DNA of 64,000 nt from Candidatus Brocadia pituitae (GTDB lineage: Bacteria; Planctomycetota; Brocadiia; Brocadiales; Brocadiaceae). The stretch lies in the NCBI GenBank assembly GCA_017347445.1, contig AP021856.1, positions 750,613 to 814,612 on the forward strand, written 5' to 3'. The notes under the pieces were generated by a model, which made no database searches, was not told the DNA's origin, and saw nothing but the letters and a program-made list of their open reading frames with translations. A program made the translations under genes and the position numbers. This document shows, one piece after another, positions 29,867 through 63,791 of this stretch. Each line of letters begins with the position of its first letter. Within the stretch, counting starts at the first letter, position 1.

Positions 29867-29874
29867 CTAAAAAT

Positions 29875-29962
29875 CCCCCTCACCCTAACCCTCTCCCGCA
29901 AGGGGAGAGGGAATATAAGCAATCTCCCCGCCCTTGATGGGAGGGGACAAAGGGGAGGGTGA
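29875..29962. repeat. Palindromic element, family B, between res and mod
   Basis: TCACCCT...AGGGTGA termini; internal hairpin CCCTCTCCC-GCAA-GGGGAGAGGG; related partial copies near 39306-39352, 52465-52503 and 57236-57270. Confidence 0.75.
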
Positions 29963-30008
29963 TAATTTTCATTCCCCTTTGTATCTTTCAGACATGTAAG
30001 TTTCATAG

Positions 30009-32033: not shown

Positions 32034-32080
32034 TTTAGTATCCTCTACATTTTATTGTTTGACCTGCATGGGTATCTCGA

Positions 32081-33115
32081 TTATTTTATATCATCCATTA
32101 ATTTGGCAATTTGTTCCGGTGCGGGAAGCTCTTTCCTGAGCGTACTCGGAAGTTTCGTAACTATCTGATATTTTGCAACGCCTATCGGTTTCTTGCTTTC
32201 GCGCAGGGCATATTCCACAATTGTCCGGCTTTTGTCCTTGCACAAAATAATTCCAATTGAAGGGTTCTCGCCCTTTTCTTTTACCATAGAATCCAATGCG
32301 GCAAGATAAAACTGTATTTTCCCGGCGTATTCCGGTTTGAAATCGCCTGTTTTCAGCTCAATAGCGACGAGGCATTTCAGCCGCCGGTGATACAATAAAA
32401 TATCAATAAAAAATTCCCTTCCTTCAATCTCAAGACGAAACTGGTTGCCAACAAAAGTAAACGCCCCACCCATCTCAATGAGGAACCGGTTTACTTTGTT
32501 CATTATGGCACGCTCAAGCTCAATCTCGCTGTGTTCATCGCCAAGCTCAAGAAAGTCAAAAGTATATTCGTCTTTGACCGCCAGTTTTGCCTGATTCCTG
32601 ATTTTCTCCGGCAGCGCCTTGTCGAAATTGGTCTGATTTAGAAGAGTTTTTTCATAGGTCTTATTGTCAATCTGGTGGATGAGAACATTTTTGGTCCAGC
32701 CATACTTTCTGGTCATGCGGATATAAAATTCGCGTTCCAAATCAGTATCGCACGACTCCATTACAACTACAAGTTTAGTCCAGCTGATTTCTTGCACCAA
32801 TGGTGCAAGTTTTTCGTTATTTTTAAACATCAGATAAAATTTCCGCATTCTCCATAGATTATCCCGTGAATAACCGGCAACACCTGGAAATTCAGCCTGG
32901 AGATCCTTGGCGAGTCTCTCGACAATGGTTTTTCCCCAGCCTTCTTTCTCCTGCCGCGCAACAATCATACTGCCAATGTCCCAATATAACGCAATAAGCT
33001 CTTTGTTCACCGCTTTAAGGGCATCATACTGCGCCTGCCGGATACGCGCCTTGACGGAATTAAGAAGCACTACATATTCATTTTGCTTGGCAATCCTGGA
33101 CATCTTCCTCTCCAT
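32081..33115 (-). CDS. YhcG/DUF1016 PD-(D/E)xK nuclease
   Basis: VNKELIALYWDIG, KDEYTFDFL, IDILLYHRRLKCLVAIELK, NPSIGIILC. Confidence 0.93.
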   Translation of the reverse strand: MERKMSRIAKQNEYVVLLNSVKARIRQAQYDALKAVNKELIALYWDIGSMIVARQEKEGWGKTIVERLAKDLQAEFPGVAGYSRDNLWRMRKFYLMFKNNEKLAPLVQEISWTKLVVVMESCDTDLEREFYIRMTRKYGWTKNVLIHQIDNKTYEKTLLNQTNFDKALPEKIRNQAKLAVKDEYTFDFLELGDEHSEIELERAIMNKVNRFLIEMGGAFTFVGNQFRLEIEGREFFIDILLYHRRLKCLVAIELKTGDFKPEYAGKIQFYLAALDSMVKEKGENPSIGIILCKDKSRTIVEYALRESKKPIGVAKYQIVTKLPSTLRKELPAPEQIAKLMDDIK

Positions 33116-33214
33116 CGTGATATTAGACGATAAATAATTTCCATGTAAATAAATTCAAGGATGTTTTTAGCAAGTCTGCTTAGGCCTTCCCATGTTTTTT
33201 GCACTACCACTTTA

Positions 33215-33316
33215 TAGTAAACGTATTAAATAAGCTGACATGTGCTGGTCATTGCGAGCGACAGCGAAGCAATCCCACTATAGAGATTGCTTCGAGCTGG
33301 CGCCCTCGCAATGACA
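33215..33316 (+). repeat. Palindromic REP/MITE-like element, family A
   Basis: GTCATTGCGAG...GAAGCAATC...GATTGCTTC...CTCGCAATGAC nested inverted repeats. Confidence 0.85.
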
Positions 33317-33347
33317 ACTTTCTTTATGTGTTTACTATAGATCACCG

Positions 33348-36251: not shown

Positions 36252-36506
36252 TTATTATAGTGTTCAGATAATTATTTACGCTTAAAGCTAAAGACCTAAA
36301 CGGAAATTATCTATTTTTTTTAGGTATGTGCATGGAGTATAAGTCATTCAAAAGCGTATTTCAATACTATTTTAAGCAAATTCACGTGCTGAGTTGAACA
36401 TTAGTTTACGCGAAAGAATAACGTAGCATATTTTGTCGATTTTGCTACAAATAAGGACTTTAAAAAGATTGAAAAATAGTCGAGGTAAAACTAAGAGCGG
36501 AGTTAA

Positions 36507-36780
36507 TTGAAGGTAAATGCTTCGATAAATATGCTGGTGCTTCATACGGCATCCTTAAAACATCTTTCAGGTTTTTTTGGTGATATGGTTTTATCTGAAA
36601 TTACCTCCAAAAAGATTAACGAGTACAAACAAGCACAAAAGAAAGCCGATGGGAGGCGTCCCAAGCATCAACCAAGATTGCCAGGATTCTTGAGGGGAGT
36701 GAATATATTAGAGAATTCAGGTCACGATTTGGTCGCCCTAGGGGGAAACCGGATATGTCAACTGCCTGAAACCCCTGATT
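36507..36780 (+). pseudogene. Tyrosine integrase relic (internally deleted)
   Basis: SLKHLSGFFGDMVLSEITSKKINEYK resembles an integrase core-binding domain; no catalytic domain; abuts the tRNA 3' end. Confidence 0.6.
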
Positions 36781-36784
36781 TGTA

Positions 36785-38726
36785 TGGTGGGCGCTAGCCC
36801 TAAAACAAGCGAGGTTTTAAAACCTCGCCTGCAACCGTAATTTTTGATCTATTTCTAGCACTATTTTGAAGCACTTTTTCTTGGCAAAGGCGTTTTTTGC
36901 TCTCTCATCTGGAGAAATAATCCATTTATGTGGGAAACAACACTTTTGCAGTTGAAATTCACGAAAAATCACAGACTCAGGACATACCTTCCCCTTATCC
37001 GCATCCCGTGTGCTTCGTCTCCTGCCTCTTGCAGACAGACCAGATTATTTTAATCCTCAATTACGCACATTTAAGTCGTCGGATTCGTTCCCACGTCTCA
37101 AAAAAATCTTTCAGCCAATCATTGTATCCAAGCACACGATACACAATCTTTCTGCCTGTCCTGAGTATCTGACAGGGCAAGAATATCAGAGAGTTCAGGA
37201 ACCGCCTGAACTCCATTTTCACTACCTGTGTTCCCCTCCCTTCGTTCGGCATCAAGAGCCCAAACCACGCCTTCAAATTCCACGCCAACGCAGCCATCAC
37301 CATATATGCCCAGTTGCTTTCCAAATCCCTTACCGGCATCCTCATCGCATTTACCCCATTCTTCAATTGCTCTATCACATTCTCCTGATTGCATCGTTCA
37401 TTCGCCAATTCCACTACCTCTTGTGCCGTTCTATCTCTGAGTGTTGTTATATAAAAAAAGTATCGAATATCGTCTATCAACGCCTTCTTTCCCTCTTCCA
37501 CCGTCAGATTCTTTTTCAGCGCCACCACACGATACCCCTTTTTACATTTTCCCGGTTTATATTCAAATTCCGCTACCCATTCACTCTCCAATCGGATATT
37601 CTTGTAGCCCTTCTCTTTGACTATTTCCTCTTTTACGTTCTCCGGTTTCTGCCTCTGCTGCGTTTTTACCGAATTCTTCTCTTTCCGCTTTAATGCCTTC
37701 CATGCCTCCTTGGGCAATTCTTCCGTACATTTTATCAGACAAGCATGGGCATCCATCCTAAAGACAAAGTCCGCCTTCTCTGACCATCTGTCAAAATTCC
37801 CGGTCAATGAAAAGTCCGTATCCCCACGAATACATACCCCTTCCGCATTTGCTTTCACCATCTCTATCGCACGATCTATCCACCCTGCCGCCCCATCGTG
37901 GCTCGCTACGTTCCCAGAACGATTTACCACATACAACACCTCTTTCGTATTTGCAAGCGACAAAATCAGCGGCGCATACCCCCATATCCCCTTATACGAT
38001 ATGCTCATCCCGCCCTTGCATTCTCCATAGACACCCGCTATCGTCCCATCCACATCTATCAACGCCACTTTAAACTTCTCTTTCCTTCCTTCTTTCCACA
38101 CCCGACTCCTCACCGTGTTTATGCTTTCCATGAGATTCCCGATATCCTCCGGCGTAAACCGCCTCGTAAAATCACCCGCCGTTGTCGGATCCGGTATCCT
38201 TTGCGCTCCCACCGCATTCAGATACCCCTCATTACTCCTGTTCAACTCTCTATCCTCCAATCTCATCCCACCAGCATATTGTACGCTATATTCAACACAT
38301 GGTCTGATTCATGGTATGGCACATGTGCCTTCAGTAGCTTTACCTTTGCATTTATCTCCTCTACCAACCCACACCTCTGCACCATCTGATGGATCGCTCC
38401 TATACCACCACAATTGATCGCCTGACTCTTCTCCGCCACCTCGTAATGGATATTTCTCCCCTTCAACATCGGACTCTCTTGATCTTCCCACTGCTTCCTC
38501 TTCAGCCGCCCCTTGATTTCCTGTTTCCTTCTCTTCAGTATTCTGCTATACTGACGTTGTGATTTTTTGCTCATCTGAAATGCCCCTTTTTCTGGTTAGT
38601 AAGATTTTCACGTATCCTTATTTTGACCAAAAATCGGGCATTTCAACCATCTTCACCTCTCTCTGCAAAATTATCACGCTTGTGTTAGGGCTAGTGGATT
38701 CGAACCACTGATCCCTTGCGTGTGAA
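36785..38726 (-). tRNA. 3' half of tRNA-Val(CAC) (att-like fragment), interrupted by IS1380; not a functional tRNA
   Basis: Removing the IS and one CTAG gives minus-strand TTCACAC-GCAAG-GGATC-AGTGG-TTCGAAT-CCACT-AGCGCCC-ACCA (anticodon loop to CCA); no D-arm or 5' acceptor strand upstream. Confidence 0.85.
36798..38690 (-). mobile_element. IS1380-family element, 1893 bp, frameshifted transposase
   Basis: TIRs CCCTAAAACAAGCG / CCCTAACACAAGCG; perfect CTAG target duplication (36794-36797, 38691-38694); DDE transposase split into 38263..38574 and 37061..38266. Confidence 0.95.
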
Positions 38727-42872: not shown

Positions 42873-44156
42873 TTAGCGGGAAGGGCATCTTTGTTTCAGT
42901 TTGTCAACGAGGTCGCCTGGTATGGTGACTTTGGCAATGGGGCAGTCCAGCCTTCTTTCACCGTGAAAATCCGAGCCACCGGTTACTGCAAGATTATACT
43001 TCTTTGCAAGCTTCAGGTACTTTTTGACAGCTTGCGGGGTATGCGTAGGATAATATACCTCGATCCCCTGTAATCCGCATTTTACCAAATCTTCGATAAT
43101 ATGGTCTCTCTGCGTGAGTCCCGGATGGGCCAGCGCCGCCACACCCCCCGCATCTCTGATCAGTTCAATGGCCTGTTGTGACGTCAAGGTTTTTTTAGGA
43201 ACATATGCTGGCTTATTATCTCCTATGTATTTTGAAAATGATTCTAAAATCGTATCGCAATAACCGCGCTTCCAGAGTATTTCCGCCACATGCATGCGCC
43301 CCGGTGATCCTTGGCCGGCAAGGGTAAAGATTTCCTGCGCATCAACATCAACGTGGAGCGTATGCAACTTGTCAACCATGTCGTGAATACGATTCACACG
43401 ATCATTGCGGGATTGTTGTATCATTTGTTGCAAAGATATATTATTCACATCGATAAAATATCCCAGGATATGGACCTCAGAGGGGCTGAGGTATGACGAA
43501 AATTCTATACCCGGTATAATATGGATATTTTTGCCCTGCCCGTAGCGGCAGGCAATAACGAGCCCGTCAACGGTATCATGATCCGTAATCGCAATTGTAG
43601 AGACGCCGCAGCGGAGGGCGTCATCGACAACTTCCTCCGGTGTCATGGTGCCATCTGAATAGGTGGTATGGATATGGAGGTCTGCATCTCCGTAATGAAT
43701 CTCTGGCGCGTCCTGAAGCGCAGTCTGGCAGGTATTCCCATTCAAATTTCCATTTCCAAATTGGGAGTAAATTTTATCTAAAATCCCGTTCACAAATGTT
43801 CCGGAGTTTTTTGTGCTGAATTTTTTGGCTAATTCTATGGCCTCGTTAATCGATACCTTGGGGGGAATATCGTTTCGATACAATAGTTCGTAAACTCCCA
43901 AACGGAGGATATTTTTATCGATAATGGCCATGCGTCGCAATTCCCAATGTTCCGTGATTCCCGATATCTTTTCATCGATTTCTTTCATGTGTACCCGGCA
44001 ACCGTTGGTAAGCGCTATGGCGAACTGATACACGTCGGGGTTTTTCGTGCTTTTCTTGCAGAAACTCTCTATATCATTAAGGATTTCATCCCCACGCAGA
44101 TCAAGCTGATAAAGGGCTTGAAGGGCAAGCTCGCGGGCAATTGTTCTGTTGCGCAT
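42873..44156 (-). CDS. nusB: NusB fused to a PHP (TrpH/YciV-like) phosphoesterase domain
   Basis: Residues 1-135 are NusB (ARELALQALYQ, INEAIELAKKFST, FVNGILD). C-terminal domain has HIHTTYSDG, ITDHD, GIEFS, HILGY, GRMH, AHPG, GGSDFHG. No stop between the two. Confidence 0.93.
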   Translation of the reverse strand: MRNRTIARELALQALYQLDLRGDEILNDIESFCKKSTKNPDVYQFAIALTNGCRVHMKEIDEKISGITEHWELRRMAIIDKNILRLGVYELLYRNDIPPKVSINEAIELAKKFSTKNSGTFVNGILDKIYSQFGNGNLNGNTCQTALQDAPEIHYGDADLHIHTTYSDGTMTPEEVVDDALRCGVSTIAITDHDTVDGLVIACRYGQGKNIHIIPGIEFSSYLSPSEVHILGYFIDVNNISLQQMIQQSRNDRVNRIHDMVDKLHTLHVDVDAQEIFTLAGQGSPGRMHVAEILWKRGYCDTILESFSKYIGDNKPAYVPKKTLTSQQAIELIRDAGGVAALAHPGLTQRDHIIEDLVKCGLQGIEVYYPTHTPQAVKKYLKLAKKYNLAVTGGSDFHGERRLDCPIAKVTIPGDLVDKLKQRCPSR

Positions 44157-45016: not shown

Positions 45017-46363
45017 GTGGAAGAAGCGAAGCCAGAAGACACAGTGTCTGAAATTGAAGGCTTAAGAATGCCGTTGGGAGCGCATCTTGAAGAGTTACGG
45101 AGACGGGTCGTATATTCTCTTATCTCAATTGTTCTCTGTTTTATCTTGTGCTGGTTTTTTAAAGTCCAGATACTGGATATGGCCAAAAGACCTCATAAAT
45201 TTGCCATGGAAAAGGTAGGCCTTTCAACAGAATTGCAGGTGCTGAGCTACCAGGAGGGCTTCTATGCGTATATGAAATTGTGCTTCATAACGTCGGTTTT
45301 TTTGGCCTATCCCTTTGTGATATACCAGATATGGCAATTTGTCAGCGCCGGCCTTTATAAAAAAGAGCAAAGGTACGTGCTATTGTTCCTCCCTGTCTCA
45401 TATGCAGCATTTGTGGTTGGCGGACTCTTTGGGTATTTTTTACTCATTCCCTTTGGTCTGCAATTTTTAATCGGCATCCTTGGTCCCGGTATTCAACCTA
45501 TCATCACGATGAAGGACTACGTCTCCTTCGTTTTCATGCTCACGGTTGCACTAGGTTTGGTGTTTCAGTTGCCGCTTGTTATGCTGCTTCTTTCGAAGAT
45601 CAGATTCATCACCCCTGATAAATTTATTGCATGGAGAAAGTACGCCATTCTGGTAATTTTTATTATTGCCGCTATTGTCACGCCGCCCGACCCTTTTACC
45701 CAGTCGATGACCGCTATTCCTATGATTGTCCTCTATGAGCTGGGAATACTCATCGCACGGCCCACAAAGAAGGGATTTTTCCTTTTAGGCACCATCGTTG
45801 GAGGGGGGATTCTGCTGTTGTTAATGTTTTATTTTTATTTTACCCACAAGGGAGGCGAAGTCAATCTGCTAGACACCCGGGGAGAGGTTCAATTTTTGCA
45901 TCCTGAAGGGCAGGAATGGGAAAAGGTGGCAAACCATACCCGTTTCCGGAACGGCGTTACCCTGAAAACCGGCAGTGAAGGGATGACCGCTCTCTCTACC
46001 AGAAAGGGTATTGATATAGGTATGGATGCAAATACCGAAGTGCATATTGTTGATTCTTTGAAGTTAAGGATGAAATCAGGCCAGATCCTCATTTCGGTAA
46101 AGGGGTTAAAAACACCACTGGAAATTGATACGCCAAATGGGCGGATTAGGACCGAACGGGGAACGTTAAATATTGTGGCAAAGGATTTTATTACCATTGT
46201 AACTGCGGTGAAGGGTGATGCCGTTCTGGTCACAGAGGGTGAAGAAAAAAAGTTACTGGAAGGACGTCAGCATAAGATGTCCATTGGCGGTGAGCCCGTT
46301 GACATTGGTGCTATTATTAATTGGTCTGAAGGCGTGATCAACAAATCAGCGGGTGGAGAATAA
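45017..46363 (+). CDS. tatC: TatC with an extra TM and a C-terminal FecR-like domain
   Basis: MPLGAHLEELRRR, YQIWQFVSAGLYKKE, FQLP, TPPDPFTQ, LYELGI; then a 7th TM and a FecR-like beta domain (LKTG...GQILISV...LEIDTPNG...TIVTAVKG). Confidence 0.93.
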   Translation: MEEAKPEDTVSEIEGLRMPLGAHLEELRRRVVYSLISIVLCFILCWFFKVQILDMAKRPHKFAMEKVGLSTELQVLSYQEGFYAYMKLCFITSVFLAYPFVIYQIWQFVSAGLYKKEQRYVLLFLPVSYAAFVVGGLFGYFLLIPFGLQFLIGILGPGIQPIITMKDYVSFVFMLTVALGLVFQLPLVMLLLSKIRFITPDKFIAWRKYAILVIFIIAAIVTPPDPFTQSMTAIPMIVLYELGILIARPTKKGFFLLGTIVGGGILLLLMFYFYFTHKGGEVNLLDTRGEVQFLHPEGQEWEKVANHTRFRNGVTLKTGSEGMTALSTRKGIDIGMDANTEVHIVDSLKLRMKSGQILISVKGLKTPLEIDTPNGRIRTERGTLNIVAKDFITIVTAVKGDAVLVTEGEEKKLLEGRQHKMSIGGEPVDIGAIINWSEGVINKSAGGE

Positions 46364-46789: not shown

Positions 46790-48751
46790 ATGAATACTAT
46801 TTTCTCCTGCGTCTTCCGTACGAAGGACCATCTGTGCCGCATACTGCCCCTATTTTTATTCAGTCTCTCTGCCTTTGTGTCCCCTCTCCTTGCGGTATCA
46901 AACGATACGGAACCTGGCGTACATTTTGTTCGTGGCATTTTGCCCTCCCGGCAATATTTTGAAAACCATGAGATCCAGCGCTATGCTGTTGTGATTGGCA
47001 TATCGGATTATAAGGATCCGGGGATAGCCGATCTGGAATATGCGGACGCTGATGCCCAGGTATTTTATGATTTTCTTACCAGCCCGGCCGGTGGTGATTT
47101 CAAGAAAGAACACGTCTTGCTCCTGAAGAATGAGCAGGCAACCCTGAAAAACGTCACCCTTGCCATTACCAATTTTCTTAAAAAGACAAATGACCCTGAT
47201 TTTGTCGTCATCTTCATGGCATGTCATGGCGAGCCGGAACCTGACCGCCCCGGCAATCTCTATTTACTCATGCACGATTCTGAGCCCGGCAGCTTGTCTG
47301 CAACTGCTTATCACATGGAAGATGTCAATGCTGACATGAAACGATACATTTCGGCAAAGAGGCTTGTTTTATTTGCAGATGCCTGCCACAGTTCGGGGCT
47401 TGGCGAAGGTATCATGAATACCCGGGGAAGCACAAATACGATTCCTGCAGCGCTTTCCACACTCAAATCAACGAGGGAGGGATGGGGAATTGTAAGTGCA
47501 AGCAGGGCAAGGGAAGTTTCAAGGGAGTCACATCAGTTTGGTGGCGGTCATGGGGTATTTACTCACTACCTGCTGGAAGGTTTACAAGGAAAAGCCGATG
47601 CGGAAGGAAACAAAAATGGGATCGTTACCCTTACGGAGGCATTCGATTTTGTGGCTGAAAATGTGAAAAAGGCAACGCACAACGCACAGCATCCTGACCT
47701 ATCAGGAAATTTCGACAATAACCTTCCCCTGGGATTTCCCGGAGTAGAAACCGGCACCAAAGGAACTGCCCAAAAGACAGCTATGCCACCCTTAGGCGTT
47801 CTGAAAATTCATGGCATGCCCGAAGGGTCACGGGTATATATAAAAGGAAAAGAGGTCGGCGTCACCCCTCTGGACCTAAAACTCATGAGCGGGACATATC
47901 CTGTTAAGATAAAAACGAGAGGCCATCCCGATGTGTCGGAGACGGTATTTGTTAATCCCGATGAATTGACGGAGATCTGTGCTGAGCAACTCTTTGAGCG
48001 ATTCTATTTTGGGGCGGAATCCGGCACCTCCAGCGGCACCCATCTGGCCTATGCCGGGTCGGGCGGATACGCGCCGGATTACCTGGAATCGGATGATAAA
48101 ACGCATGATGTTGCACCAGCAAAAGCTATGTCCCCTGGCAGCGCTCCGACACCACAGGCAGAAACGGTGCACAAGCAGGCAGATTTGCAGAAAACAAAGG
48201 AAAACATCGATACACTCATAAAAGAACTAGAGATCATGGCAGAGAAACAAACCAGGGGAGAAAAACCCATGCCTGCTAAAAAACCGGGAGAAAAGAGACA
48301 TGAAACCGCAGACGTTCCACACTGCGTCCCTATATCTCTTAAGGAATTTAATGTAAAAATGGGCGCGTTATCAAACAGACATACCACGGAATTGCTCCGG
48401 CAAAGGATTATTGACGCCCTCTTGTCCCAAAACGGCTTACATGTGATGGAAAGGGATTTGGAATTGCAGGAGGCGATTTTACGGGAACAAAGGCTCGGTG
48501 GCTCTATGCTTGCCGATGAGCTGTATAGAATTGAGCTGGGAAAGATACAGGGAGCCCAATTCCTCTGTTTTGGAGAAGTATATCCGGGAAAAACGCCCGA
48601 TCAGCACATAGTAAGAATAGAATTGGTTGACACGGCAACAACGCTTATCGATACGCTTGAATGCGCCTTTCGGAGTGAAGAAGATCCGGGGGCCGTGGCA
48701 CGTGATATCGCCGCAAAGATGAAGGCAAAGATTGTCGCAAAAAGAAAATGA
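46790..48751 (+). CDS. Secreted caspase-like (C14, clan CD) peptidase + PEGA + CsgG-like domain
   Basis: Signal peptide; YAVVIGISDY, FMACHG (His), FADACHS (Cys); PEGA-like GSRVYIKGKEVGVTP; C-terminal VMERDLELQEAILREQRL...RIELVDTAT. Confidence 0.9.
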   Translation: MNTIFSCVFRTKDHLCRILPLFLFSLSAFVSPLLAVSNDTEPGVHFVRGILPSRQYFENHEIQRYAVVIGISDYKDPGIADLEYADADAQVFYDFLTSPAGGDFKKEHVLLLKNEQATLKNVTLAITNFLKKTNDPDFVVIFMACHGEPEPDRPGNLYLLMHDSEPGSLSATAYHMEDVNADMKRYISAKRLVLFADACHSSGLGEGIMNTRGSTNTIPAALSTLKSTREGWGIVSASRAREVSRESHQFGGGHGVFTHYLLEGLQGKADAEGNKNGIVTLTEAFDFVAENVKKATHNAQHPDLSGNFDNNLPLGFPGVETGTKGTAQKTAMPPLGVLKIHGMPEGSRVYIKGKEVGVTPLDLKLMSGTYPVKIKTRGHPDVSETVFVNPDELTEICAEQLFERFYFGAESGTSSGTHLAYAGSGGYAPDYLESDDKTHDVAPAKAMSPGSAPTPQAETVHKQADLQKTKENIDTLIKELEIMAEKQTRGEKPMPAKKPGEKRHETADVPHCVPISLKEFNVKMGALSNRHTTELLRQRIIDALLSQNGLHVMERDLELQEAILREQRLGGSMLADELYRIELGKIQGAQFLCFGEVYPGKTPDQHIVRIELVDTATTLIDTLECAFRSEEDPGAVARDIAAKMKAKIVAKRK

Positions 48752-48827
48752 CCAGAATTCCTCATTTTTACGAGAATTGATGCAAGTCAACCGTCCCGGT
48801 GGCATCATAACGCAACAAAGCTGATGG

Positions 48828-49898
48828 ATGGAGGTGAGCGGCATGAAGAGAAATAGCTTGCACGCAAAAATCAGATGCAATGCACTCATGGTGTTCCTGG
48901 TATCGCCTTTTATCAGCGGCGTTACCCTTTTTTCAGCCACTGCAAAGGATACGACGCCGCCTGTGGTACAGACGGACGTAACAACCGCAGTGATCTATGA
49001 TACAAACCTCTTCCTGAGTGGCGAGGCTCTCGATGAGAGCGGTGTTGCCCAGGTCTTCGTAAATGAATGTCCTCTGGAAATCCGCGCTGGAAGGCGCGTC
49101 TTTTCCAACCATTTACACATCCTTGATAAAGGGGAAAATATCATCACCGTGAAAGCCATTGATGCAAACGGAAACACCTCGGCACCTTCACCGGTGAAAA
49201 TTATCAGAAAGTCCTTCGCTCTGCCGGAGACAGGTTTCCGGTATGCCGTTGCCCTGCTTCCGGTAAAGACCTTTGCAGAACGGGAGATGCCCACAGAGGC
49301 CATCTCCTCCCTGCTCCTGAAGGCATTCAGTGAAGAACCGAAGAGGTTTCATTTTGTAGAGCGGGATCATGCAAGACTCGAAGAAATCCTCCGTGAGCAA
49401 AAAATTAGCGCTACCGGGCTTCTATCTTCCGATACCGCCATCAAGATCGGCAGGATCGTCGCCGCAGACGGGATATTCTTGGGAACGGTAGATGAAGATG
49501 CCGGCGGCATGGGCATTACCTTGCGTCTCGTGGATACCGAAACGGCCCGCATACGTGCAACTGCCAGGGTGCATACGGAAGATAAGAGCATAGAAAATCT
49601 CGAATGGCTTGTCTATGGTCTGTCTTTGAAGATAAAGCAGCAGCTTCCCATGATGCAGGGAAGCGTTATTCGTGTTTCTGACCGGGGTTTTTACGTCAAT
49701 GCAGGCTCTGCAAATGGCATAGAGGTGGGTATGAAATTATTACTCTTCCGTGAAATCCGGGAAGGGAATTTCGTTTTAAAAGAACCGCTTGATACGGTTG
49801 CACGGGTGGCGCGGGTTTTGCCCCATACTTCCTTTGTTGCCATCACCAGAGAAGGCAGTTCAAAAGTGAAAAAGGGAGACTTTGTCTTGCTAAAGTAA
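48828..49898 (+). CDS. Secreted Ig-like + CsgG-like + FlgT-C-like protein
   Basis: DTTPPVV Ig domain; FVERDHARLEEILREQK...AIKIGRIVAADG...LRLVDTET; VNAGSANGIEVGMKL tail. Confidence 0.8.
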   Translation: MEVSGMKRNSLHAKIRCNALMVFLVSPFISGVTLFSATAKDTTPPVVQTDVTTAVIYDTNLFLSGEALDESGVAQVFVNECPLEIRAGRRVFSNHLHILDKGENIITVKAIDANGNTSAPSPVKIIRKSFALPETGFRYAVALLPVKTFAEREMPTEAISSLLLKAFSEEPKRFHFVERDHARLEEILREQKISATGLLSSDTAIKIGRIVAADGIFLGTVDEDAGGMGITLRLVDTETARIRATARVHTEDKSIENLEWLVYGLSLKIKQQLPMMQGSVIRVSDRGFYVNAGSANGIEVGMKLLLFREIREGNFVLKEPLDTVARVARVLPHTSFVAITREGSSKVKKGDFVLLK

Positions 49899-49975
49899 AA
49901 GGTAGCCTGATTGTATAGGAATTTCAAAGTTGTTGCAGAGCGAAGAGCTTCTTTGTTCTCCATGGAAAAGCAGTA

Positions 49976-50066
49976 CACCGAATATCGAACAGGGAATGAT
50001 GAGGTAGGGACAAGGAGCACCGTGTCCCTGCTAAATTCCTTGTTCTGCGGTTCGGTGTTCTCTTTA
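49976..50066. repeat. Imperfect palindromic spacer element
   Basis: CACCGAATATCGAACAGGGAAT...ATTCCTTGTTC...TTCGGTG; the same GAATATCGAACAGGGAAT-ATGA occurs at about 58614-58636. Confidence 0.55.
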
Positions 50067-50136
50067 CACTGCTGTCGCGAATATCTATTTAAACTGCGGA
50101 AACAAAGAAAGGTCTCGTGAGTTGAAGGTGTAACAC

Positions 50137-52326
50137 ATGGTAAAGACCTTTTGCCAAATATTCAAATTCATCGTTATGTTACCCGTATTTCTCTTGCCTT
50201 TTGCAGGATGTACAACGACTTCTCAGATCGGCACGGACAACTGGCGGGATTATTTTGAGCCGGGCCACACGAAAGAGGAGATTGGCAGAGATTTCAACCT
50301 TCATAGGGGTAAGTGGTGGAACTATTACATCCGTGGCCGCTGGTTTGCCGACGGTGGGCACTATGATGAGGCCGTCCGGGACTTTCAAAAGTCTATCAAT
50401 CTGAGAAGCCGTGACCAGCGTTCAGCCAGGAGTTACGGGATGCATTTTTGGGAATACTTTGCCCATCGTGAGCTGGGGATTGTGTATTACCATCAGGAAA
50501 GGTTTGCAGATGCGAAAAAGGAGTTGGAAACATCCCTTTCAACGGCAGATTCTGCTCGTGCCAAATTTTACCTGAACAAATGCAACGAGAGAATCCTGAA
50601 AGAAACGAAGAGAGACCGGCAGCCGCCGGTGATACAAATCACCTCTCACACCGGTGGGGAGATTGTCAATACGCCCGTGGTAGAGTTGCAGGGGGCCGCT
50701 ACCGACGATTCCTATGTAAACAGCATGTTTGTTCAGGAGAGACGGCTCTTCATAGAACTTGCCGAAAGGGCGCTTCCGTTTGATGAAACCATTGCCCTGC
50801 AACCGGGAGAAAATCTGGTTCGTCTGGAGGCAACAGACCTTTCGGGCAAAAGCGTCCAGCGGGATTTGAAACTCACACTGGATCTGCGTCCACCGGTTTT
50901 GTATCTGGATGATATACAAATACAGAAAAGAGACGGCAGGAATATTGCCGTTGTCACGGGAACTATCACGGACGATAATGGGGTGCAGCGTCTCTCTATT
51001 AACGACATCGAGATACCCATTCCTCCGGATAAAGCGGTGAATTTTAAACAGGATGTTGTCCTGACGGACGGCCATAAATTCTCAGTAAAAGCAGTCGATG
51101 TGGCTGGTAACGAAACAATGGGCGAAGAGCAGTTAGACATTAAGGCATCACTGTGGCCCGGCGGCATATGGGACAAGCACATCCGGCACGCGCAACGGAC
51201 AACGGGTAAGCCTGTCATGGTTGCCCAAGGCAAAATGGACGGGGCTGAAGTAAAGAGGATGCTGGCTTCTTACGACACAGGCGCACCATCAGCTTTTACA
51301 AGTCCTTCCTCAGGAAACGCTGAAAATGCAGGAAAGGAAGCAAAAGGGGCTTCGGTCTCACCGGTAGTGGCGAAAGACACTGTCCCTCCGGTAGTATATA
51401 CTGATTTAAAAGCTGCGATTGTCCATGACGCAACCCTCTTCTTCGGTATCCACGCGCACGACGATGGCGGTGTTGCCAGGCTCTTTGTCAATCAGCAGCC
51501 TTTAGAGATCCGCCCGGCGAAGCACGTCTTCCTCAATCACCTGTTGACGCTCAGCGAAGGAGAGAATACCGTACTGGTAAAAGCCGTTGATACCCAGGGA
51601 AACGAAACGCAGCTTGCACCGGTGAAAATTACCAGAAAGGCCTTTTATCTGCTGGAAACGGATGCCCGGTATACCGTGGCGTTGCTTCCGTTAAGGACGT
51701 TTGCAGCAGACGGGGTTCTCCCGGAGACCCTCTACTCACTGTTGCTCAGGTCATTTGATGAAGAGCCGAGGAGATTTAACTTTGTGGAACGTGACCGGGC
51801 AAAACTTGAGGAGATCCTTCGTGAGCAAAAGATTAACGATAAGGCGCTTACTTCTCCGGATGCAGCCATAAGGGTTGGGAAGATCCGCGCAGCCGAGGGC
51901 ATGCTCTTTGGCGCGGTGGAAGAGAATGCGAAGGGTATTAACGTTACCCTGCGGCTGGTAGATACGGAAACAACCCAGGTACTGGTCAATACGGACGTAT
52001 ACAGCGAGGATAAGAGTGCGGAGAATCTTGCATGGCTTATGCATGGTTTGTCACTCAAGGTGAAACGGCAATATCCCATGGTGCAGGGAAGCATTATCCG
52101 TGTTTCGGGGAATGGATTTCATGTCGATGCCGGCGCAACGAGCGGTATCAGGATAGGTATGAAATTGCTCATCTTTCGGGAGATACAGGAGGGTAATGTT
52201 GTGATAAAAGAACCCCTGGATACTATTGCCCGAATAACACAGATAGAGACTGAAACCTCGTTTGCCAGAATCAGCAGCAAAGGGAATAAAAAGATAGAAA
52301 AGAAGGACTGTGCTATCACGAAGTAA
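50137..52326 (+). CDS. Lipoprotein with TPR, three Ig-like domains and CsgG/FlgT-like module
   Basis: Lipobox FAGC; TPR helices (YYIRGRWF..., HRELGIVYYHQ); repeated Ig domains; C-terminal about 310 aa paralogous to 48828..49898. Confidence 0.85.
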   Translation: MVKTFCQIFKFIVMLPVFLLPFAGCTTTSQIGTDNWRDYFEPGHTKEEIGRDFNLHRGKWWNYYIRGRWFADGGHYDEAVRDFQKSINLRSRDQRSARSYGMHFWEYFAHRELGIVYYHQERFADAKKELETSLSTADSARAKFYLNKCNERILKETKRDRQPPVIQITSHTGGEIVNTPVVELQGAATDDSYVNSMFVQERRLFIELAERALPFDETIALQPGENLVRLEATDLSGKSVQRDLKLTLDLRPPVLYLDDIQIQKRDGRNIAVVTGTITDDNGVQRLSINDIEIPIPPDKAVNFKQDVVLTDGHKFSVKAVDVAGNETMGEEQLDIKASLWPGGIWDKHIRHAQRTTGKPVMVAQGKMDGAEVKRMLASYDTGAPSAFTSPSSGNAENAGKEAKGASVSPVVAKDTVPPVVYTDLKAAIVHDATLFFGIHAHDDGGVARLFVNQQPLEIRPAKHVFLNHLLTLSEGENTVLVKAVDTQGNETQLAPVKITRKAFYLLETDARYTVALLPLRTFAADGVLPETLYSLLLRSFDEEPRRFNFVERDRAKLEEILREQKINDKALTSPDAAIRVGKIRAAEGMLFGAVEENAKGINVTLRLVDTETTQVLVNTDVYSEDKSAENLAWLMHGLSLKVKRQYPMVQGSIIRVSGNGFHVDAGATSGIRIGMKLLIFREIQEGNVVIKEPLDTIARITQIETETSFARISSKGNKKIEKKDCAITK

Positions 52327-58688: not shown

Positions 58689-58845
58689 TCATAGATTTTG
58701 CCGTAAGGATTATTCGTGCAGCGGAATCCTCGCCAAAAACAAGGGCGGGAAATCACCTTGCCGGGCAACGTATTCGTTAAGAAGTTGCGTGAAACAAGAA
58801 TATGGTTATTGATGATGGCAAAAGCCCATCTTATAAAAAATGAAA
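58689..58845 (+). pseudogene. Four-helix-bundle (23S rRNA IVS-like) protein remnant
   Basis: FIDFAVRIIRAAESSPKTRAGNHLAGQRIR joined out of frame to KLRETRIWLLMMAKAHLIK; central helix missing. Confidence 0.7.
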
Positions 58846-58863
58846 CCCACCGGAGACCATGGA

Positions 58864-59553
58864 ATGCAGGGAAAACTGATTGTCCTTACCGGTATAGACG
58901 GCAGCGGTAAGACGGTGCAGACAAAGCTCCTGTGCAAACGGTTGCGGGAGGAGGGATATCCCGTTGATATTACCGACTTCCCCCAATATGGCAAGACCTT
59001 CTTTGCTGACATGGTTGCGAAATATCTGAAAGGTGACTTTGGCAGTGCAGACGCTGTAAGCCCCTACTTGGCAGCGATGCTCTATGCAGGAGACCGCTGG
59101 GAGTGCAAGGACAAGATCAACGGATGGCTCAGGGAAGGCAAGATTATCGTGTCAAACCGATACGTGTGCGATAATATGGCCCATCAGGGTGGTAAAATGA
59201 GGAGCACCGCAGAGAAAGAGGAATTTTTCCGGTGGCTGGACACTCTGGAACATCAGGTATTTGCCGTCCCGCGGTCAAATCTCAATATCCTGTTGTATGT
59301 GCCGGCCGAAATTGCTTACCGCCTCGTTGAAAAAAAGGAACAGCGCGCTTATCTGGCAGGCGCAAGGAAGGACGTCCATGAGGAAGACATTAACCACCTG
59401 CGGTACGCGCAACAAACATTTCTGGAAATTGCTCAGGGAAAAAAGGATTGGGTAACGATTGACTGCACAGAAAACGGCACGTTGTTACCGGAACAACTCA
59501 TTGCAGATAAGGTGTGGCAGACGGTGAAGGACATATTGCAAAAAAATGAATGA
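58864..59553 (+). CDS. tmk: Thymidylate kinase
   Basis: LIVLTGIDGSGKT P-loop, FPQY, DRW/NRY motifs; start set to ATG 58864. Confidence 0.93.
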   Translation: MQGKLIVLTGIDGSGKTVQTKLLCKRLREEGYPVDITDFPQYGKTFFADMVAKYLKGDFGSADAVSPYLAAMLYAGDRWECKDKINGWLREGKIIVSNRYVCDNMAHQGGKMRSTAEKEEFFRWLDTLEHQVFAVPRSNLNILLYVPAEIAYRLVEKKEQRAYLAGARKDVHEEDINHLRYAQQTFLEIAQGKKDWVTIDCTENGTLLPEQLIADKVWQTVKDILQKNE

Positions 59554-59671
59554 GCGATATGGTTGGGTGCATCTTATAAAATTGTAGCGACAAGGCATGT
59601 CTTGCCATCGCAGGAGGGCGGGCATCGCCCACCAATAATCATGAATTCTGGCTAAAACAGGAGCAATCCTT

Positions 59672-60991
59672 ATGGCAAGCAGGAAAAAGGTTTTGATTAT
59701 GGGAGCCGCGGGGCGGGATTTTCACAATTTTAATCTCTGCTTTCGCGACCATCCTGAATACGAAGTCATCGCCTTTACGGCGGCCCAGATACCAAATATT
59801 GAAGGGAGACGCTATCCCCCTTCCCTGGCAGGCAAATTCTATCCCCGTGGAATCCCCATCGAACCTGAACAAAAGCTGGCAACACTCATAAAACTCCATG
59901 TAATTGATGAGGTGGTATTCTCTTACAGCGATGTGTCACATGAGTACGTTATGCACAAGGCCAGCTTGGTAAACGCATCCGGGGCTCAATTTACCCTTCT
60001 GGGCACAAGGCAAACGATGTTAAAGAGTCTCAGGCCAGTTATCGCTGTTTGTGCGGTAAGAACCGGCAGTGGCAAGAGTCCCGTCTCGCGAAGGGTCTGT
60101 GAGATTCTCAAAGGAATGGGGAAAAAGGTGGTTGTTATACGGCATCCCATGCCCTATGGTGACCTTTCCCGGCAGCGTCTGCAGCGGTTTGCTTCATATG
60201 AGGATTGCCAGAAGCATGACTGCACCATCGAAGAGGTTGAGGAATATGAACCCCATCTGGAACAGCATACCGTCGTTTACGCCGGTGTGGATTATGCAGC
60301 GATCCTGGCAGAGGCGGAAAAGGAGGCGGACGTTGTCGTATGGGACGGAGGCAATAATGACACCCCCTTCTACATGCCCGATGTTCATATTACTCTTATT
60401 GACCCGCACCGTCCGGGGCATGAGCTTGCCTATTATCCCGGTGAAACGAACTTCCTCATGGCAGACATTATTGTTATTAATAAAGAAGACACCGCAAAGC
60501 CAGAAAACATAGATCTTCTTAAGGAACACATTCAGCAGGCGAATCCAAAGGCTGCTGTTATAGATGCCGCATTACCCATAACGGTTGAAAACGCTGGGCT
60601 TATACAGGGGAAACGCGCCCTGGTGGTCGAAGACGGGCCAACCCTGACACATGGCGGAATGGCCTTCGGTGCCGGGATCCTTGCTGCCGAACGTTATGAA
60701 GCAAAAGAGATCATCGACCCAAGACCGTATGCGGTAGGGTCCATTGCCGGAATTTTTGGGAAATATCCCCACATAGGGAAACTTCTGCCTGCTATGGGAT
60801 ACGGGCATGCGCAGATGGAAGAGTTGAGGGAAACGATACACCGCACTCCATGTGACGTGGTGATTATTGGCACCCCGGTCGATCTGAGAAGGCTCATATC
60901 CATTGATAAACCTACTGACCGTGTCCGGTATCATTTCCAGGAAATCGGCACACCCACGCTCAAAGAACTCATTGAAGCACGGCTGCGATGA
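59672..60991 (+). CDS. COG2403-type P-loop NTPase (usually labelled cyclic 2,3-diphosphoglycerate synthetase); probable arginine synthetase
   Basis: MGAAGRDFHNFN, AVRTGSGKS, RHPMPYGDL, WDGGNND, VEDGPTLTHG, LPAMGY; ATGA-coupled to carbamate kinase. Confidence 0.8.
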   Translation: MASRKKVLIMGAAGRDFHNFNLCFRDHPEYEVIAFTAAQIPNIEGRRYPPSLAGKFYPRGIPIEPEQKLATLIKLHVIDEVVFSYSDVSHEYVMHKASLVNASGAQFTLLGTRQTMLKSLRPVIAVCAVRTGSGKSPVSRRVCEILKGMGKKVVVIRHPMPYGDLSRQRLQRFASYEDCQKHDCTIEEVEEYEPHLEQHTVVYAGVDYAAILAEAEKEADVVVWDGGNNDTPFYMPDVHITLIDPHRPGHELAYYPGETNFLMADIIVINKEDTAKPENIDLLKEHIQQANPKAAVIDAALPITVENAGLIQGKRALVVEDGPTLTHGGMAFGAGILAAERYEAKEIIDPRPYAVGSIAGIFGKYPHIGKLLPAMGYGHAQMEELRETIHRTPCDVVIIGTPVDLRRLISIDKPTDRVRYHFQEIGTPTLKELIEARLR

Positions 60992-61935
60992 AGAGAAAGA
61001 TTGTTGTCATTGCCCTGGGGGGTAATGCCCTTATCGGGGAAGGGCAGCAGGGTACCGTTGCGGAACAATTCGAAAATGTCCGAAAGAGTCTGGACGGGAT
61101 CATCTCCTGCTTAAAAATGGGCTTCGAGGTAGTCATCACCCATGGAAACGGGCCACAGGTTGGGAATTTGCTGCTTATGGTAGAGGCCAGCCGGAATCAG
61201 GTGCCGGAGCTTTCCCTGGGCGTCTGTGTTGCAGACACCGAAGGTGCCATCGGGTATATGATCCAGCAATCCTTAACGAATCGTCTCCGAAAGGAGGGTA
61301 TCGATCGGTGCGTTGTTACCGTGCTGACGCAGGTTGTTGTCAATAAAGATGACCCGGCCTTTTTGAATCCAACCAAACCCATCGGCCCCTTTTTTACCCG
61401 GGAAGAAGTGGAACGTTTCCGCCGGGAGAAAGGCTGGTATGTTGCTGAAGATAGTCACAGAGGGTACCGCCGGGTTGTTGCTTCACCCAATCCGCTGAAA
61501 ATCGTGGAAGAGAGGGCAGTCAAGACCCTGTTAAAAACCGGAGATATTGTCATTGCGGCAGGGGGTGGTGGTATTCCGGTGATAATAAACGAAGGGGGAG
61601 ATCTTGAGGGTGTTGACGTGGTGATCGACAAAGACCTTGCCTCTGCTGTTTTGGCCAGAGAGCTTGGAGCGCATGGTCTTATAATGCTTACCGGCGTTGA
61701 TCAGGTCTTCTTGAATTTCAGGCAACCAGGCGAGCAGATGCTGAGCAGATTAACGATAAATGAGGCAAAAAAATATTTACAGGAGGGACACTTTCCGCCG
61801 GGGAGTATGGGTCCAAAGGTTCAGGCGGCCATGAATTTTTTAGGCTGGGGTGGAGAACTGGCGATTATCACATCCATCGACAAGGTCAAAGAGGCATTGG
61901 ACGGCCGGACAGGCACGATGATTATCAGGGATTAA
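60988..61935 (+). CDS. arcC: Carbamate kinase
   Basis: IALGGNAL, THGNGPQVG, KPIGPF, RRVVASP, GGGGIPV, DKDLAS, GSMGPKV. Confidence 0.96.
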   Translation: MKRKIVVIALGGNALIGEGQQGTVAEQFENVRKSLDGIISCLKMGFEVVITHGNGPQVGNLLLMVEASRNQVPELSLGVCVADTEGAIGYMIQQSLTNRLRKEGIDRCVVTVLTQVVVNKDDPAFLNPTKPIGPFFTREEVERFRREKGWYVAEDSHRGYRRVVASPNPLKIVEERAVKTLLKTGDIVIAAGGGGIPVIINEGGDLEGVDVVIDKDLASAVLARELGAHGLIMLTGVDQVFLNFRQPGEQMLSRLTINEAKKYLQEGHFPPGSMGPKVQAAMNFLGWGGELAIITSIDKVKEALDGRTGTMIIRD

Positions 61936-62147: not shown

Positions 62148-63791
62148 TCAGACCGGCGATTTTTTGCGACTCAGACCGGGTTTCGGCCTTTTCATGGTAA
62201 TGTGTCTCTTCCAGTGAGGGTTGTCTGTCTTGGGATAATCAGCGCGATGATGAACGCCTCGGGATTCCGTACGTTTACGGGCTGAGACTACAATAAGACG
62301 GGAAACCAGCAGCATATTTTGCAATTCCCATCCCGTTGGATTGGCAAACTCTTTGTCCATCACATACCGGCACCACATTTCAATCATCTCTTCCGCCTCA
62401 AGCAGGTGTTTTTCGTCCCGCTCTATCCCGGCATCCCTCCACATAAGACTCTTGAGTGAATTTCCAATATCATTCAGATCCAGCCAGCTAATCTTTGATC
62501 CGCCCGCAAATTCCTGTATGGGATAAGGAAACAATTCACGTTTCGACCGCTGGATTGACTTGCCGGCATCTTTCCCGGCGACAGAACCCGCCACCAGCCC
62601 TTCAAGCAAAGAATTGCTGCCGAGCCGGTTGGCTCCATGCATCCCGGTGCAGGCCACCTCACCACAGGCGTAAAGTTGTCTGATGGTCGTTCCGGAAAGG
62701 CGGTTGACCTTCACGCCACCAATCATATAGTGAGCGCTCGGACGCACCGGAATGAGGTCTTTGGCAATGTCAATCCCAAAAGATGCACAGATCTCCCTGA
62801 TCCTGGGGAAACGGGCATATAATCGTTCCTTCGGAATATGTCGGATATCGATATACACGTGGGTCTGATCGGTCTTCTGCATCTCTTTCAGGATGCTCTG
62901 GCTGACAACATCCCGTGGCGCCAGCTCCGCTTGCATATGATACTTTGGCATGAACCGTTCACCCTTTTTATTCCTTAAGATACCCCCTTCACCGCGCACT
63001 GTCTCCGTGATGAGAAACCGAACTGCACCGGCAATATAGAGCGTTGTAGGATGAAACTGCACAAATTCCATATCCTGAAGGGTAGCCCCTGCCCGGTAGG
63101 CCATTGCCAACCCATCCCCCGTGGCTATGCCTGGATTCGTTGTCTCGCGGTAGACCTGTCCGCATCCCCCCGTAGCGAGAATTGTTCTCTTCGCCCAGAT
63201 CAGCATATTTCCCTTCTTTTCGTGCCAGGCAATTGCACCGTGACAAACTTCGTCTCCGGTGATCAAATCAACTACAAAGGTATGTTCAAAGACCTTGATA
63301 TTTTTATTTTCCTTTGCAACCCTGACGAGGGTTTGTTCTATTTCTTTTCCGGTGGAGTCGCCCTGGGCATGAATAATGCGAGGAAAGTGGTGGCCGCCCT
63401 CCTGAGTAAAAACCAAATGGTCGTCTTCTTTGTCAAATGACGCGCCCCATTCAATCAATTCACTTACCCGCTTCGGACCTTCGCCAATAATGGCTTTTAC
63501 TGTAGCTGTGTCACACAAACCCTGACCTGCATCCAGGGTGTCCTTGATGTGTTTTGATACCGTGTCCCCGGCAGAGAGAACTACCGCCACTCCCCCCTGG
63601 GCGTAAGCAGTGTTATTTTCATCAACCCTTTCCTTGGTGACAATCAAAACGGTATTGTTTCTTGCTGCCTGTATGGCGGCGCTGAGCCCGGCCACTCCGC
63701 TTCCAATCACCAGGACGTCGGTGAAAACGTGAGCGGTAGTGCGACTGTCGAAGGAAATAAGGTATCTTTTGGGTTCTGTCTGTTTTTTCAA
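62148..63791 (-). CDS. nadB: L-aspartate oxidase
   Basis: IGSGVAGL, AYAQGG, EGGH, QFHPT, LITETVRGEG, HYMIGG, GMHGANRLGSNSLLE, ESRGVH. Confidence 0.93.
   Translation of the reverse strand: MKKQTEPKRYLISFDSRTTAHVFTDVLVIGSGVAGLSAAIQAARNNTVLIVTKERVDENNTAYAQGGVAVVLSAGDTVSKHIKDTLDAGQGLCDTATVKAIIGEGPKRVSELIEWGASFDKEDDHLVFTQEGGHHFPRIIHAQGDSTGKEIEQTLVRVAKENKNIKVFEHTFVVDLITGDEVCHGAIAWHEKKGNMLIWAKRTILATGGCGQVYRETTNPGIATGDGLAMAYRAGATLQDMEFVQFHPTTLYIAGAVRFLITETVRGEGGILRNKKGERFMPKYHMQAELAPRDVVSQSILKEMQKTDQTHVYIDIRHIPKERLYARFPRIREICASFGIDIAKDLIPVRPSAHYMIGGVKVNRLSGTTIRQLYACGEVACTGMHGANRLGSNSLLEGLVAGSVAGKDAGKSIQRSKRELFPYPIQEFAGGSKISWLDLNDIGNSLKSLMWRDAGIERDEKHLLEAEEMIEMWCRYVMDKEFANPTGWELQNMLLVSRLIVVSARKRTESRGVHHRADYPKTDNPHWKRHITMKRPKPGLSRKKSPV

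Follow-up and report, generated by a model that had tools for sequence, protein, structure and literature searches.

An arginine synthetase homologue overlapping a carbamate kinase gene in the anammox bacterium Candidatus Brocadia pituitae

The arginine synthetase pathway and the Brocadia locus

The arginine synthetase pathway, in which arginine synthetase (ArcE) acts together with ornithine carbamoyltransferase (OTC; ArcB) and carbamate kinase (ArcC), has been described in the archaeon Thermococcus kodakarensis (Michimori, Yokooji & Atomi, PNAS 2024, PMC11032458; Michimori et al. 2026, PMC13260591). The T. kodakarensis ArcE, TK2200p, was shown biochemically to catalyze the reaction L-arginine + ADP + Pi <=> L-citrulline + ATP + NH3, which is reversible in vitro, sustains the conversion of citrulline to arginine in T. 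kodakarensis cells, and has an equilibrium constant (K) of 10.1 towards citrulline and ATP (PMC11032458). TK2200p is specific for L-arginine, with agmatine, guanidine, D-arginine and Arg-dipeptides not being accepted, and prefers ADP, showing 8.4% activity with GDP; in the reverse reaction it takes free ammonia only, with a Ks of approximately 110 mM ammonium (3.7 mM NH3). Here we analyze a 64,000-nucleotide stretch of the Candidatus Brocadia pituitae genome (GenBank assembly GCA_017347445.1, contig AP021856.1, positions 750,613 to 814,612 of the forward strand; hereafter, the window), in which an open reading frame (ORF) with homology to Thermococcales ArcE (ORF A, arcE; 59672-60991, plus strand) overlaps an ORF encoding a carbamate kinase (ORF B, arcC; 60988-61935, plus strand). 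Judging from sequence and predicted fold, these two genes, together with a distant OTC gene, probably constitute an arginine synthetase pathway that most likely runs in the direction of arginine breakdown in Brocadia.

A known counterpart of this system is the arginine deiminase (ADI) pathway encoded by arcABC, which shares its OTC and carbamate kinase steps and likewise turns arginine, on balance, into ornithine, CO2 and two NH3. The two pathways differ in their first step, which in the ADI pathway is carried out by the hydrolytic ArcA, a member of the guanidino-modifying superfamily, whereas ArcE is a reversible P-loop synthetase through which a second ATP is conserved. The Brocadia locus departs from the T. 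kodakarensis system in both host and layout. Brocadia is a mesophilic autotrophic anammox bacterium and T. kodakarensis a peptide-fermenting hyperthermophilic archaeon, and while arcE and arcC overlap in a single operon in Brocadia, TK2200 and the carbamate kinase gene TK2158 lie apart in T. kodakarensis.

ORF A and ORF B encode proteins of 439 and 315 amino acids, respectively, and share four bases. Direct reading places the ATG of ORF B at 60988-60990 and the TGA of ORF A at 60989-60991, so that start and stop codons merge into an ATGA junction (60988-60991, plus strand; the sequence reads ...ctgcgATGAagaga..., that of the ORF A/ORF B junction being ctgcgATGAagag) indicative of translational coupling. 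The sequence AGGAG (59659-59663, plus strand), located 8 nt 5' of the arcE ATG, may act as a Shine-Dalgarno element. A preliminary description, made from the letters of the stretch alone, had reported a COG2403-type NTPase coupled by ATGA to carbamate kinase, with neither arginine deiminase nor OTC in the window. The coordinates, the overlap and the TIGR00746 score of ORF B all agree with the first of these statements, as do the borderline Pfam cobW hit of ORF A and its weak PDB match to cyclic 2,3-diphosphoglycerate synthetase, and the second is upheld by a Pfam scan of 34 window ORFs, which finds neither enzyme, and by a tblastn search with ArgI, which finds no OTC. The same Pfam scan and tblastn searches of the 64-kb window (with E. 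coli ArgI, ArgG, ArgH, CarA, CarB, ArgB and ArgC as queries) revealed no OTC, ADI, argG, argH or carAB gene. A distribution complementary to that of ADI is one of the criteria for the ArcE family, and within the 64 kb covered here ArcE is unaccompanied by ADI.

Both ORFs present hundreds of full-length homologues, with E-values as low as 1e-279, and comparison of the arcE/arcC pair with that of another Brocadia genome (L001) yielded ratios of nonsynonymous to synonymous substitution rates (dN/dS) of 0.117 and 0.123, indicative of purifying selection. Given the abundance of full-length homologues and dN/dS values around 0.12, ORF A and ORF B are genuine genes and not chance ORFs. The closest named homologues of ORF A belong to Candidatus Brocadia (82-88% identity), followed by those of Kuenenia, Loosdrechtia and Wunengus, in agreement with the anammox host that the preliminary description had assumed. 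Both genes are covered by contigs from four metatranscriptome runs, and in three of these runs single contigs cross the arcE/arcC junction (60836-61304 and 60946-61151).

Identity of the two encoded proteins

As a proxy for TK2200, ORF A was compared with a 448-aa Thermococcus ArcE orthologue encoded by a Thermococci metagenome-assembled genome (MAG; locus L006, ORF 2399-3745), which was located by an exact pattern search with the gene-specific 3' part of primer ExTK2200_R (PMC13260591 supplement). The last 22 nt of the L006 ORF are those of ExTK2200_R, and a single contig in the genome collection matched this pattern. The flanking KOD1 primers have no match on the L006 contig, which makes L006 a close orthologue of TK2200 but not the same gene. 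The L006 protein falls into a 90%-identity cluster of 201 sequences that covers Palaeococcus and a large number of Thermococcus species, and arcE is present in one copy per genome in the Thermococcales (PMC13260591). ORF A and the L006 protein align without gaps over 432 residues, with 64% identity, 80% similarity and a score of 588 bits. The authors of the ArcE work took a BLASTP E-value of at most 1e-10 as their criterion for family membership, and ORF A, compared through L006, shows full-length homology to the family. These data support the identification of ORF A as an ArcE arginine synthetase, with the corresponding catalytic activity predicted from homology.

Alignment of 30 ORF A homologues from Planctomycetota, Chloroflexota, Bacteroidota, KSB1 and Odinarchaeota identified approximately 140 invariant positions, among them those of the Walker A motif GSGKS (residues 132-136) and of a WDGGNND segment (residues 224-230). 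ORF A also contains an NKED sequence (residues 270-273), corresponding to an NKxD motif that reads NKID in Thermococcus. A search of ORF A against NCBIfam returned no match, and the protein belongs to no curated family. One ArcE homologue (P0231, 806 aa), found among the cluster representatives, is split by a LAGLIDADG homing-endonuclease intein; its similarity to ORF A residues 136-436 begins again directly after the intein, which places the insertion at the P-loop.

The AlphaFold model of ORF A, computed with 30 homologues, has a predicted local distance difference test score (pLDDT) of 91.1 and a predicted template modeling score (pTM) of 0.90. Foldseek searches with this model matched cyclic 2,3-diphosphoglycerate (cDPG) synthetase (8ORU; E-value 1.7e-17, 15% identity) and then LpxK (4EHY; E-value 1.9e-8). 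TK2200, annotated as a hypothetical protein or 'putative GTPase', has likewise been described as weakly similar to cDPG synthase and as having an LpxK-like ATP-Mg pocket (PMC11032458). The profile of ORF A is thus that published for TK2200, because weak similarity to cDPG synthetase and the LpxK 4EHY fold are found in both, and the two proteins are also alike in their P-loop fold, their association with carbamate kinase and their history of annotation as GTPases. The assignment of ArcE to a COG2403-type family, made in the preliminary description, proved sound, ArcE being TK2200, the homologues of which are called 'putative GTPase' (PMC11032458).

The structural matches bring up the reading that ORF A is itself a cDPG synthetase, a name that many of its homologues carry in NCBI and UniRef and that corresponds to the nearest solved fold. 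The cDPG synthetase CpgS (Methanothermus fervidus 8ORK/8ORU; 9SXB) is a distant homologue of ORF A with a shared P-loop architecture, but it differs in substrate and genomic context and is only about 15% identical in the structural alignment. Furthermore, ORF A scores 28.2 bits against 9SXB (E-value 7.5e-6, in a local match spanning 213-323) and 15.6 bits against 8ORU/8ORK, compared to 588 bits against the ArcE clade, and the cDPG synthetase label also sits on Thermococcus orthologues of the proven arginine synthetase. The partner of ORF A is a carbamate kinase, and no 2-phosphoglycerate kinase was found among the window ORFs scanned. We therefore rejected this reading, the probability of which is negligible in light of the disparity in scores, the low identity and the carbamate kinase context. 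The comparison of ArcE and cDPG synthetase similarity proposed in the preliminary description consequently places ORF A with ArcE, and the protein does not cluster with true cDPG synthetases.

The GTPase annotations found in several sources call for a second reading, whereby ORF A would be a G3E/SIMIBI GTPase, that is, a metallochaperone or regulator resembling CobW, HypB or UreG, and its adjacency to carbamate kinase would be meaningless. The NKxD motif, which in GTPases confers guanine specificity, is present in ORF A, and HypB, UreG and MeaB are among its distant fold matches. ORF A also exceeds the cutoff of the Pfam cobW family (PF02492), albeit with 20.8 bits against 20.7 and in a partial match restricted to residues 234-297 of ORF A and positions 113-179 of the profile. 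Against such a role, the characterized homologue TK2200p prefers ADP, with GDP supporting 8.4% of the activity, the overlap with the carbamate kinase gene is conserved, and genes for carbamate kinase and OTC accompany arcE in unrelated lineages. On the basis of the partial, borderline cobW match and the ADP preference of TK2200p we rejected this reading as well, considering it very improbable. Regardless of this assignment, the preference of TK2200p for ADP coexists with the NKxD motif of ArcE homologues.

Its sequence identifies ORF B as a bona fide carbamate kinase, with scores of 393 bits against the carbamate kinase equivalog model TIGR00746 (cutoff 358.25) and 391.5 bits against NF009007 (cutoff 266) and with the motifs GGNA (residue 11), HGNGPQVG (residue 52), GGGGIP (residue 192) and DKD (residue 214). 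The best PDB match of ORF B is the Pyrococcus furiosus carbamate kinase (1E19; E-value 1.6e-99), and the solved carbamate kinases of Aeropyrum, Enterococcus and Giardia are matched as well. In equivalog score and catalytic motifs ORF B resembles the ArcC proteins of P. furiosus (1E19) and Enterococcus faecalis (1B7B), the sole notable difference being its coupling to arcE instead of membership in an arcABC cluster.

The ArcE family and its pathway were published in 2024, along with a broad taxonomic range that takes in the Planctomycetota (Gimesia, Candidatus Uabimicrobium) and the nitrifiers Nitrosococcus and Nitrospira (PMC11032458). Our literature searches found no paper joining 'arginine synthetase' and anammox, and the papers they returned that name both anammox and carbamate kinase do not treat the arcE-arcC locus. 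The Brocadia arcE-arcC pair is hence a well-supported additional member of a known family, which extends known biology without creating a new category. In public records (RefSeq, UniRef), the Brocadiales and the Thermococcus/Palaeococcus orthologues are labeled 'GTPase' or 'cyclic 2,3-diphosphoglycerate synthase'. When applied to ArcE, these labels are a propagated misannotation, and as a result the enzyme is missed when the metabolism of anammox bacteria and of many others is reconstructed.

Gene neighborhoods and the direction of the pathway

Between varying flanks, the arcE-arcC pair is found again in Brocadia, Loosdrechtia and Kuenenia as well as in a Brocadiaceae MAG and a further planctomycete MAG. 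Brocadia L001, Loosdrechtia L092, Brocadiaceae L093 and Planctomycetes MAG L094 share the ATGA junction, and in Kuenenia (L004) the called arcE and arcC genes overlap by 1 base. A tmk-like gene precedes the pair in the same tmk-arcE-arcC order at loci L001-L003 and L092-L094, a position that in Kuenenia hertensis is occupied by a glycosyltransferase gene. No OTC gene is present at the Brocadiales loci L001-L004 and L092-L094. An arrangement of overlapping arcE and arcC genes with tmk upstream is thus conserved in the Brocadiales, with the OTC gene presumably residing elsewhere in these genomes.

TK2200-type genes have been reported to sometimes adjoin arcB or arcC (PMC11032458). We observed the same association in a set of 80 metagenome loci (L011-L090) encoding ArcE proteins 59-66% identical to ORF A. 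A carbamate kinase gene is present at 26 of the 80 loci and an OTC gene at 14, with 31 loci having one or the other, and carbamate kinase and/or OTC are present at 16 of the 38 loci that extend 2.5 kb or more to each side. Where carbamate kinase is clustered with arcE, it is the first same-strand ORF downstream of arcE in 20 of 25 cases. None of the 80 loci has argG, argH or carAB beside arcE, and a gene for an aldehyde dehydrogenase of the glutamate/2-ketoglutarate-semialdehyde type neighbors arcE at ten. The arginyl-tRNA synthetase gene argS, immediately 5' of arcE at ten loci, adds to this arginine-related context. The association extends to an in-frame fusion of an N-terminal carbamate kinase with an ArcE homologue (P0124; 766 aa, L091 134-2434), in which the arcC model scores 337 bits and the ArcE part is 53% identical to ORF A, encoded on a single 2.8-kb contig.

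Gene neighborhoods therefore confirm that ArcE is tied to carbamate kinase and OTC, the two enzymes with which, as the preliminary description pointed out, it works in T. kodakarensis. The conservation of the overlap despite changing flanks, the metagenome neighborhoods and the fusion protein together argue for a functional link between ArcE and carbamate kinase. Rarer recurrent neighbors of arcE in the metagenome set include genes for TatC, the succinyl-CoA synthetase beta subunit and phosphate butyryltransferase, and the gene that follows the fusion starts like a planctomycete cytochrome (CxxCH) protein.

The family is large, representatives of 3773 clusters being retrieved at E <= 1e-3 and of 668 clusters at E <= 1e-30, and a single member has been characterized. 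ORF A might accordingly be an ArcE-family enzyme acting on some other guanidino or ureido substrate, with another carbamoyltransferase feeding carbamate kinase, a scheme that would accommodate the Brocadiales loci with no adjacent OTC gene. A change of substrate is nevertheless unlikely at 64% ungapped identity to the characterized clade, loci encoding ArcE proteins equally similar to ORF A (59-66%) place OTC beside ArcE and carbamate kinase, and TK2200p rejects agmatine, guanidine, D-arginine and Arg-dipeptides. We regard an alternative substrate as improbable and retain arginine as the predicted substrate of ORF A.

The genes arcE and arcC form a two-gene, translationally coupled operon, and under the arginine synthetase reading the pathway would comprise three steps. 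ArcE would convert L-arginine, ADP and Pi to L-citrulline, ATP and NH3, and an OTC encoded elsewhere in the genome would then convert citrulline and Pi to ornithine and carbamoyl phosphate (citrulline + Pi <=> ornithine + carbamoyl phosphate). ArcC would finally transfer the phosphoryl group of carbamoyl phosphate to ADP (carbamoyl phosphate + ADP <=> carbamate + ATP), with carbamate decaying to CO2 and NH3. The net breakdown of each arginine, supplied by protein turnover or by the biofilm, would thus yield ornithine, CO2, two NH3 and, through substrate-level phosphorylation, two ATP. Since the ArcE reaction is near equilibrium, the sequence could reverse under high energy charge and high ammonium.

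Several lines of evidence bear on the direction of this pathway. The Kuenenia stuttgartiensis proteome lists CarB, ArgF (Q1PXA2) and ArgG, and 13C flux analysis of this organism indicated that fumarate is obtained from aspartate via arginine synthesis, so that the canonical anabolic route is present and active in Kuenenia. The authors of the ArcE work argued that, where ArgG and ArgH coexist with it, ArcE is catabolic, converting arginine to citrulline (PMC11032458). Together with the equilibrium constant of 10.1 and the weak binding of ammonia by TK2200p, these observations lead us to favor the breakdown direction in Brocadia, one of the two directions that the preliminary description had put forward, although they tip the balance without being decisive. 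As the canonical carbamoyl phosphate synthetase (CPS) and ArgG route probably coexists with ArcE in Brocadia, the role of the enzyme may differ from that of TK2200 and could lie in energy conservation, ammonium release, the supply of ornithine and carbamoyl phosphate, or synthesis.

The same enzymes might instead operate in the synthetic direction, from carbamate through carbamoyl phosphate and citrulline to arginine, with ArcE fixing free ammonia. Such a route would cost two ATP-to-ADP conversions, one at carbamate kinase and one at ArcE, compared to about four ATP equivalents for the canonical CPS, ArgG and ArgH route. Anammox bacteria are limited in energy and inhabit environments rich in ammonium and bicarbonate, and argS, encoding arginyl-tRNA synthetase, lies directly 5' of arcE in ten of the 80 metagenome loci. 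The P. furiosus carbamate kinase, the nearest solved relative of ORF B, was once proposed to be a CPS. The reversibility of ArcE in vitro and the formation of arginine from citrulline in vivo in T. kodakarensis are compatible with synthesis, and a biosynthetic role has been proposed for organisms lacking ArgG and ArgH, such as Candidatus Uabimicrobium amorphum (PMC11032458). In Kuenenia, however, CarB, ArgF and ArgG are expressed and the flux data fit the aspartate-dependent route. Moreover, TK2200p binds ammonium poorly (approximately 110 mM), its equilibrium lies on the breakdown side, and carbamate kinase failed to substitute for CPS as the source of carbamoyl phosphate in T. kodakarensis. 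We consequently consider a synthetic role in Brocadia rather unlikely, though a serious alternative, and arginine breakdown the better-supported direction.

Several points weigh against the catabolic arginine synthetase reading as a whole. ORF A was compared with the Thermococcus orthologue L006 and not with the TK2200 sequence, and the T. kodakarensis enzyme is the only studied member of the family, with no assay of a bacterial or mesophilic ArcE in the searchable literature. In other genomes, about 60% of the ArcE loci lack both a carbamate kinase and an OTC gene in their vicinity. The metatranscriptome contigs are unstranded, may include DNA and, by their depth, gauge expression poorly. The arg-gene data come from Kuenenia, a genus other than Brocadia, and although Kuenenia ArcE (Q1PYU2) and carbamate kinase are not among the proteome rows listed, this absence is uninformative. 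As autotrophs cultivated on mineral medium, anammox bacteria have no obvious supply of arginine to catabolize. Confidence in the breakdown direction is only moderate because the reaction is near equilibrium, the habitats are rich in ammonium and the cells are energy-limited.

In a more speculative proposal, arcE-arcC would act in anammox bacteria as a reversible ammonium/ATP valve with a lifestyle-specific role. In one version, arginine taken from the biofilm or from cellular protein would be converted to NH4+ and two ATP, sustaining cells short of ammonium or nitrite; in the other, the reverse reactions would provide, at high ammonium, a half-price route to carbamoyl phosphate and arginine that is independent of aspartate and glutamine. 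We put this forward tentatively and consider it rather unlikely.

Anammox bacteria are regarded as strict chemolithoautotrophs that derive their ATP from the proton motive force across the anammoxosome membrane. If arginine breakdown through ArcE and ArcC takes place in Brocadia, it would provide these cells with a fermentative maintenance option, generating two ATP per arginine by substrate-level phosphorylation, and would allow the anammox substrate to be drawn from organic nitrogen, with two ammonia released per arginine. Such a capability would bear on starvation survival and on cross-feeding in wastewater granules.

Flanking genes and other features of the window

The tmk-like gene upstream of arcE (58840-59553, plus strand) encodes a 237-aa protein of the dTMP kinase family (Pfam Thymidylate_kin, E-value 2.3e-21) that scores 83.1 bits against TIGR00041, just below the cutoff of 83.25. 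One RNA contig (58677-59713) runs from tmk into arcE, and the tmk-like gene may be co-transcribed with arcE-arcC. A link of tmk to pyrimidine or carbamoyl phosphate metabolism was considered and is not claimed here, its adjacency to the pair being seen only within the Brocadiales and perhaps reflecting simple synteny. Downstream of arcC, nadB (62148-63791), encoding L-aspartate oxidase, lies on the opposite strand. Scans for promoters and terminators flanking the arcE-arcC pair returned no more sites than shuffled sequence.

The spacer between tmk and arcE differs between strains by insertion or deletion, or by replacement. Contigs from three metatranscriptome runs skip positions 59563-59614 (52 nt), and other contigs diverge completely from about 59562 to 59653.

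Elsewhere in the window, a defense and mobile-element stretch on the minus strand (26957-38266) holds genes for a type III restriction enzyme (res) with an endonuclease domain, a DNA methylase, a YhcG/DUF1016 PDDEXK nuclease, an SNF2-family helicase and a DDE transposase. Two neighboring genes (42873-44156 and 45017-46363) encode a 427-aa protein in which a NusB domain is joined to a PHP phosphoesterase domain and a long TatC, which at 448 aa exceeds the Pfam TatC domain that it contains by about 200 aa. Lastly, a region spanning 46790-52326 encodes a protein with caspase (Peptidase_C14) and PEGA domains clustered with two weakly CsgG-like proteins, one of which also bears TPR and Ig-like domains.

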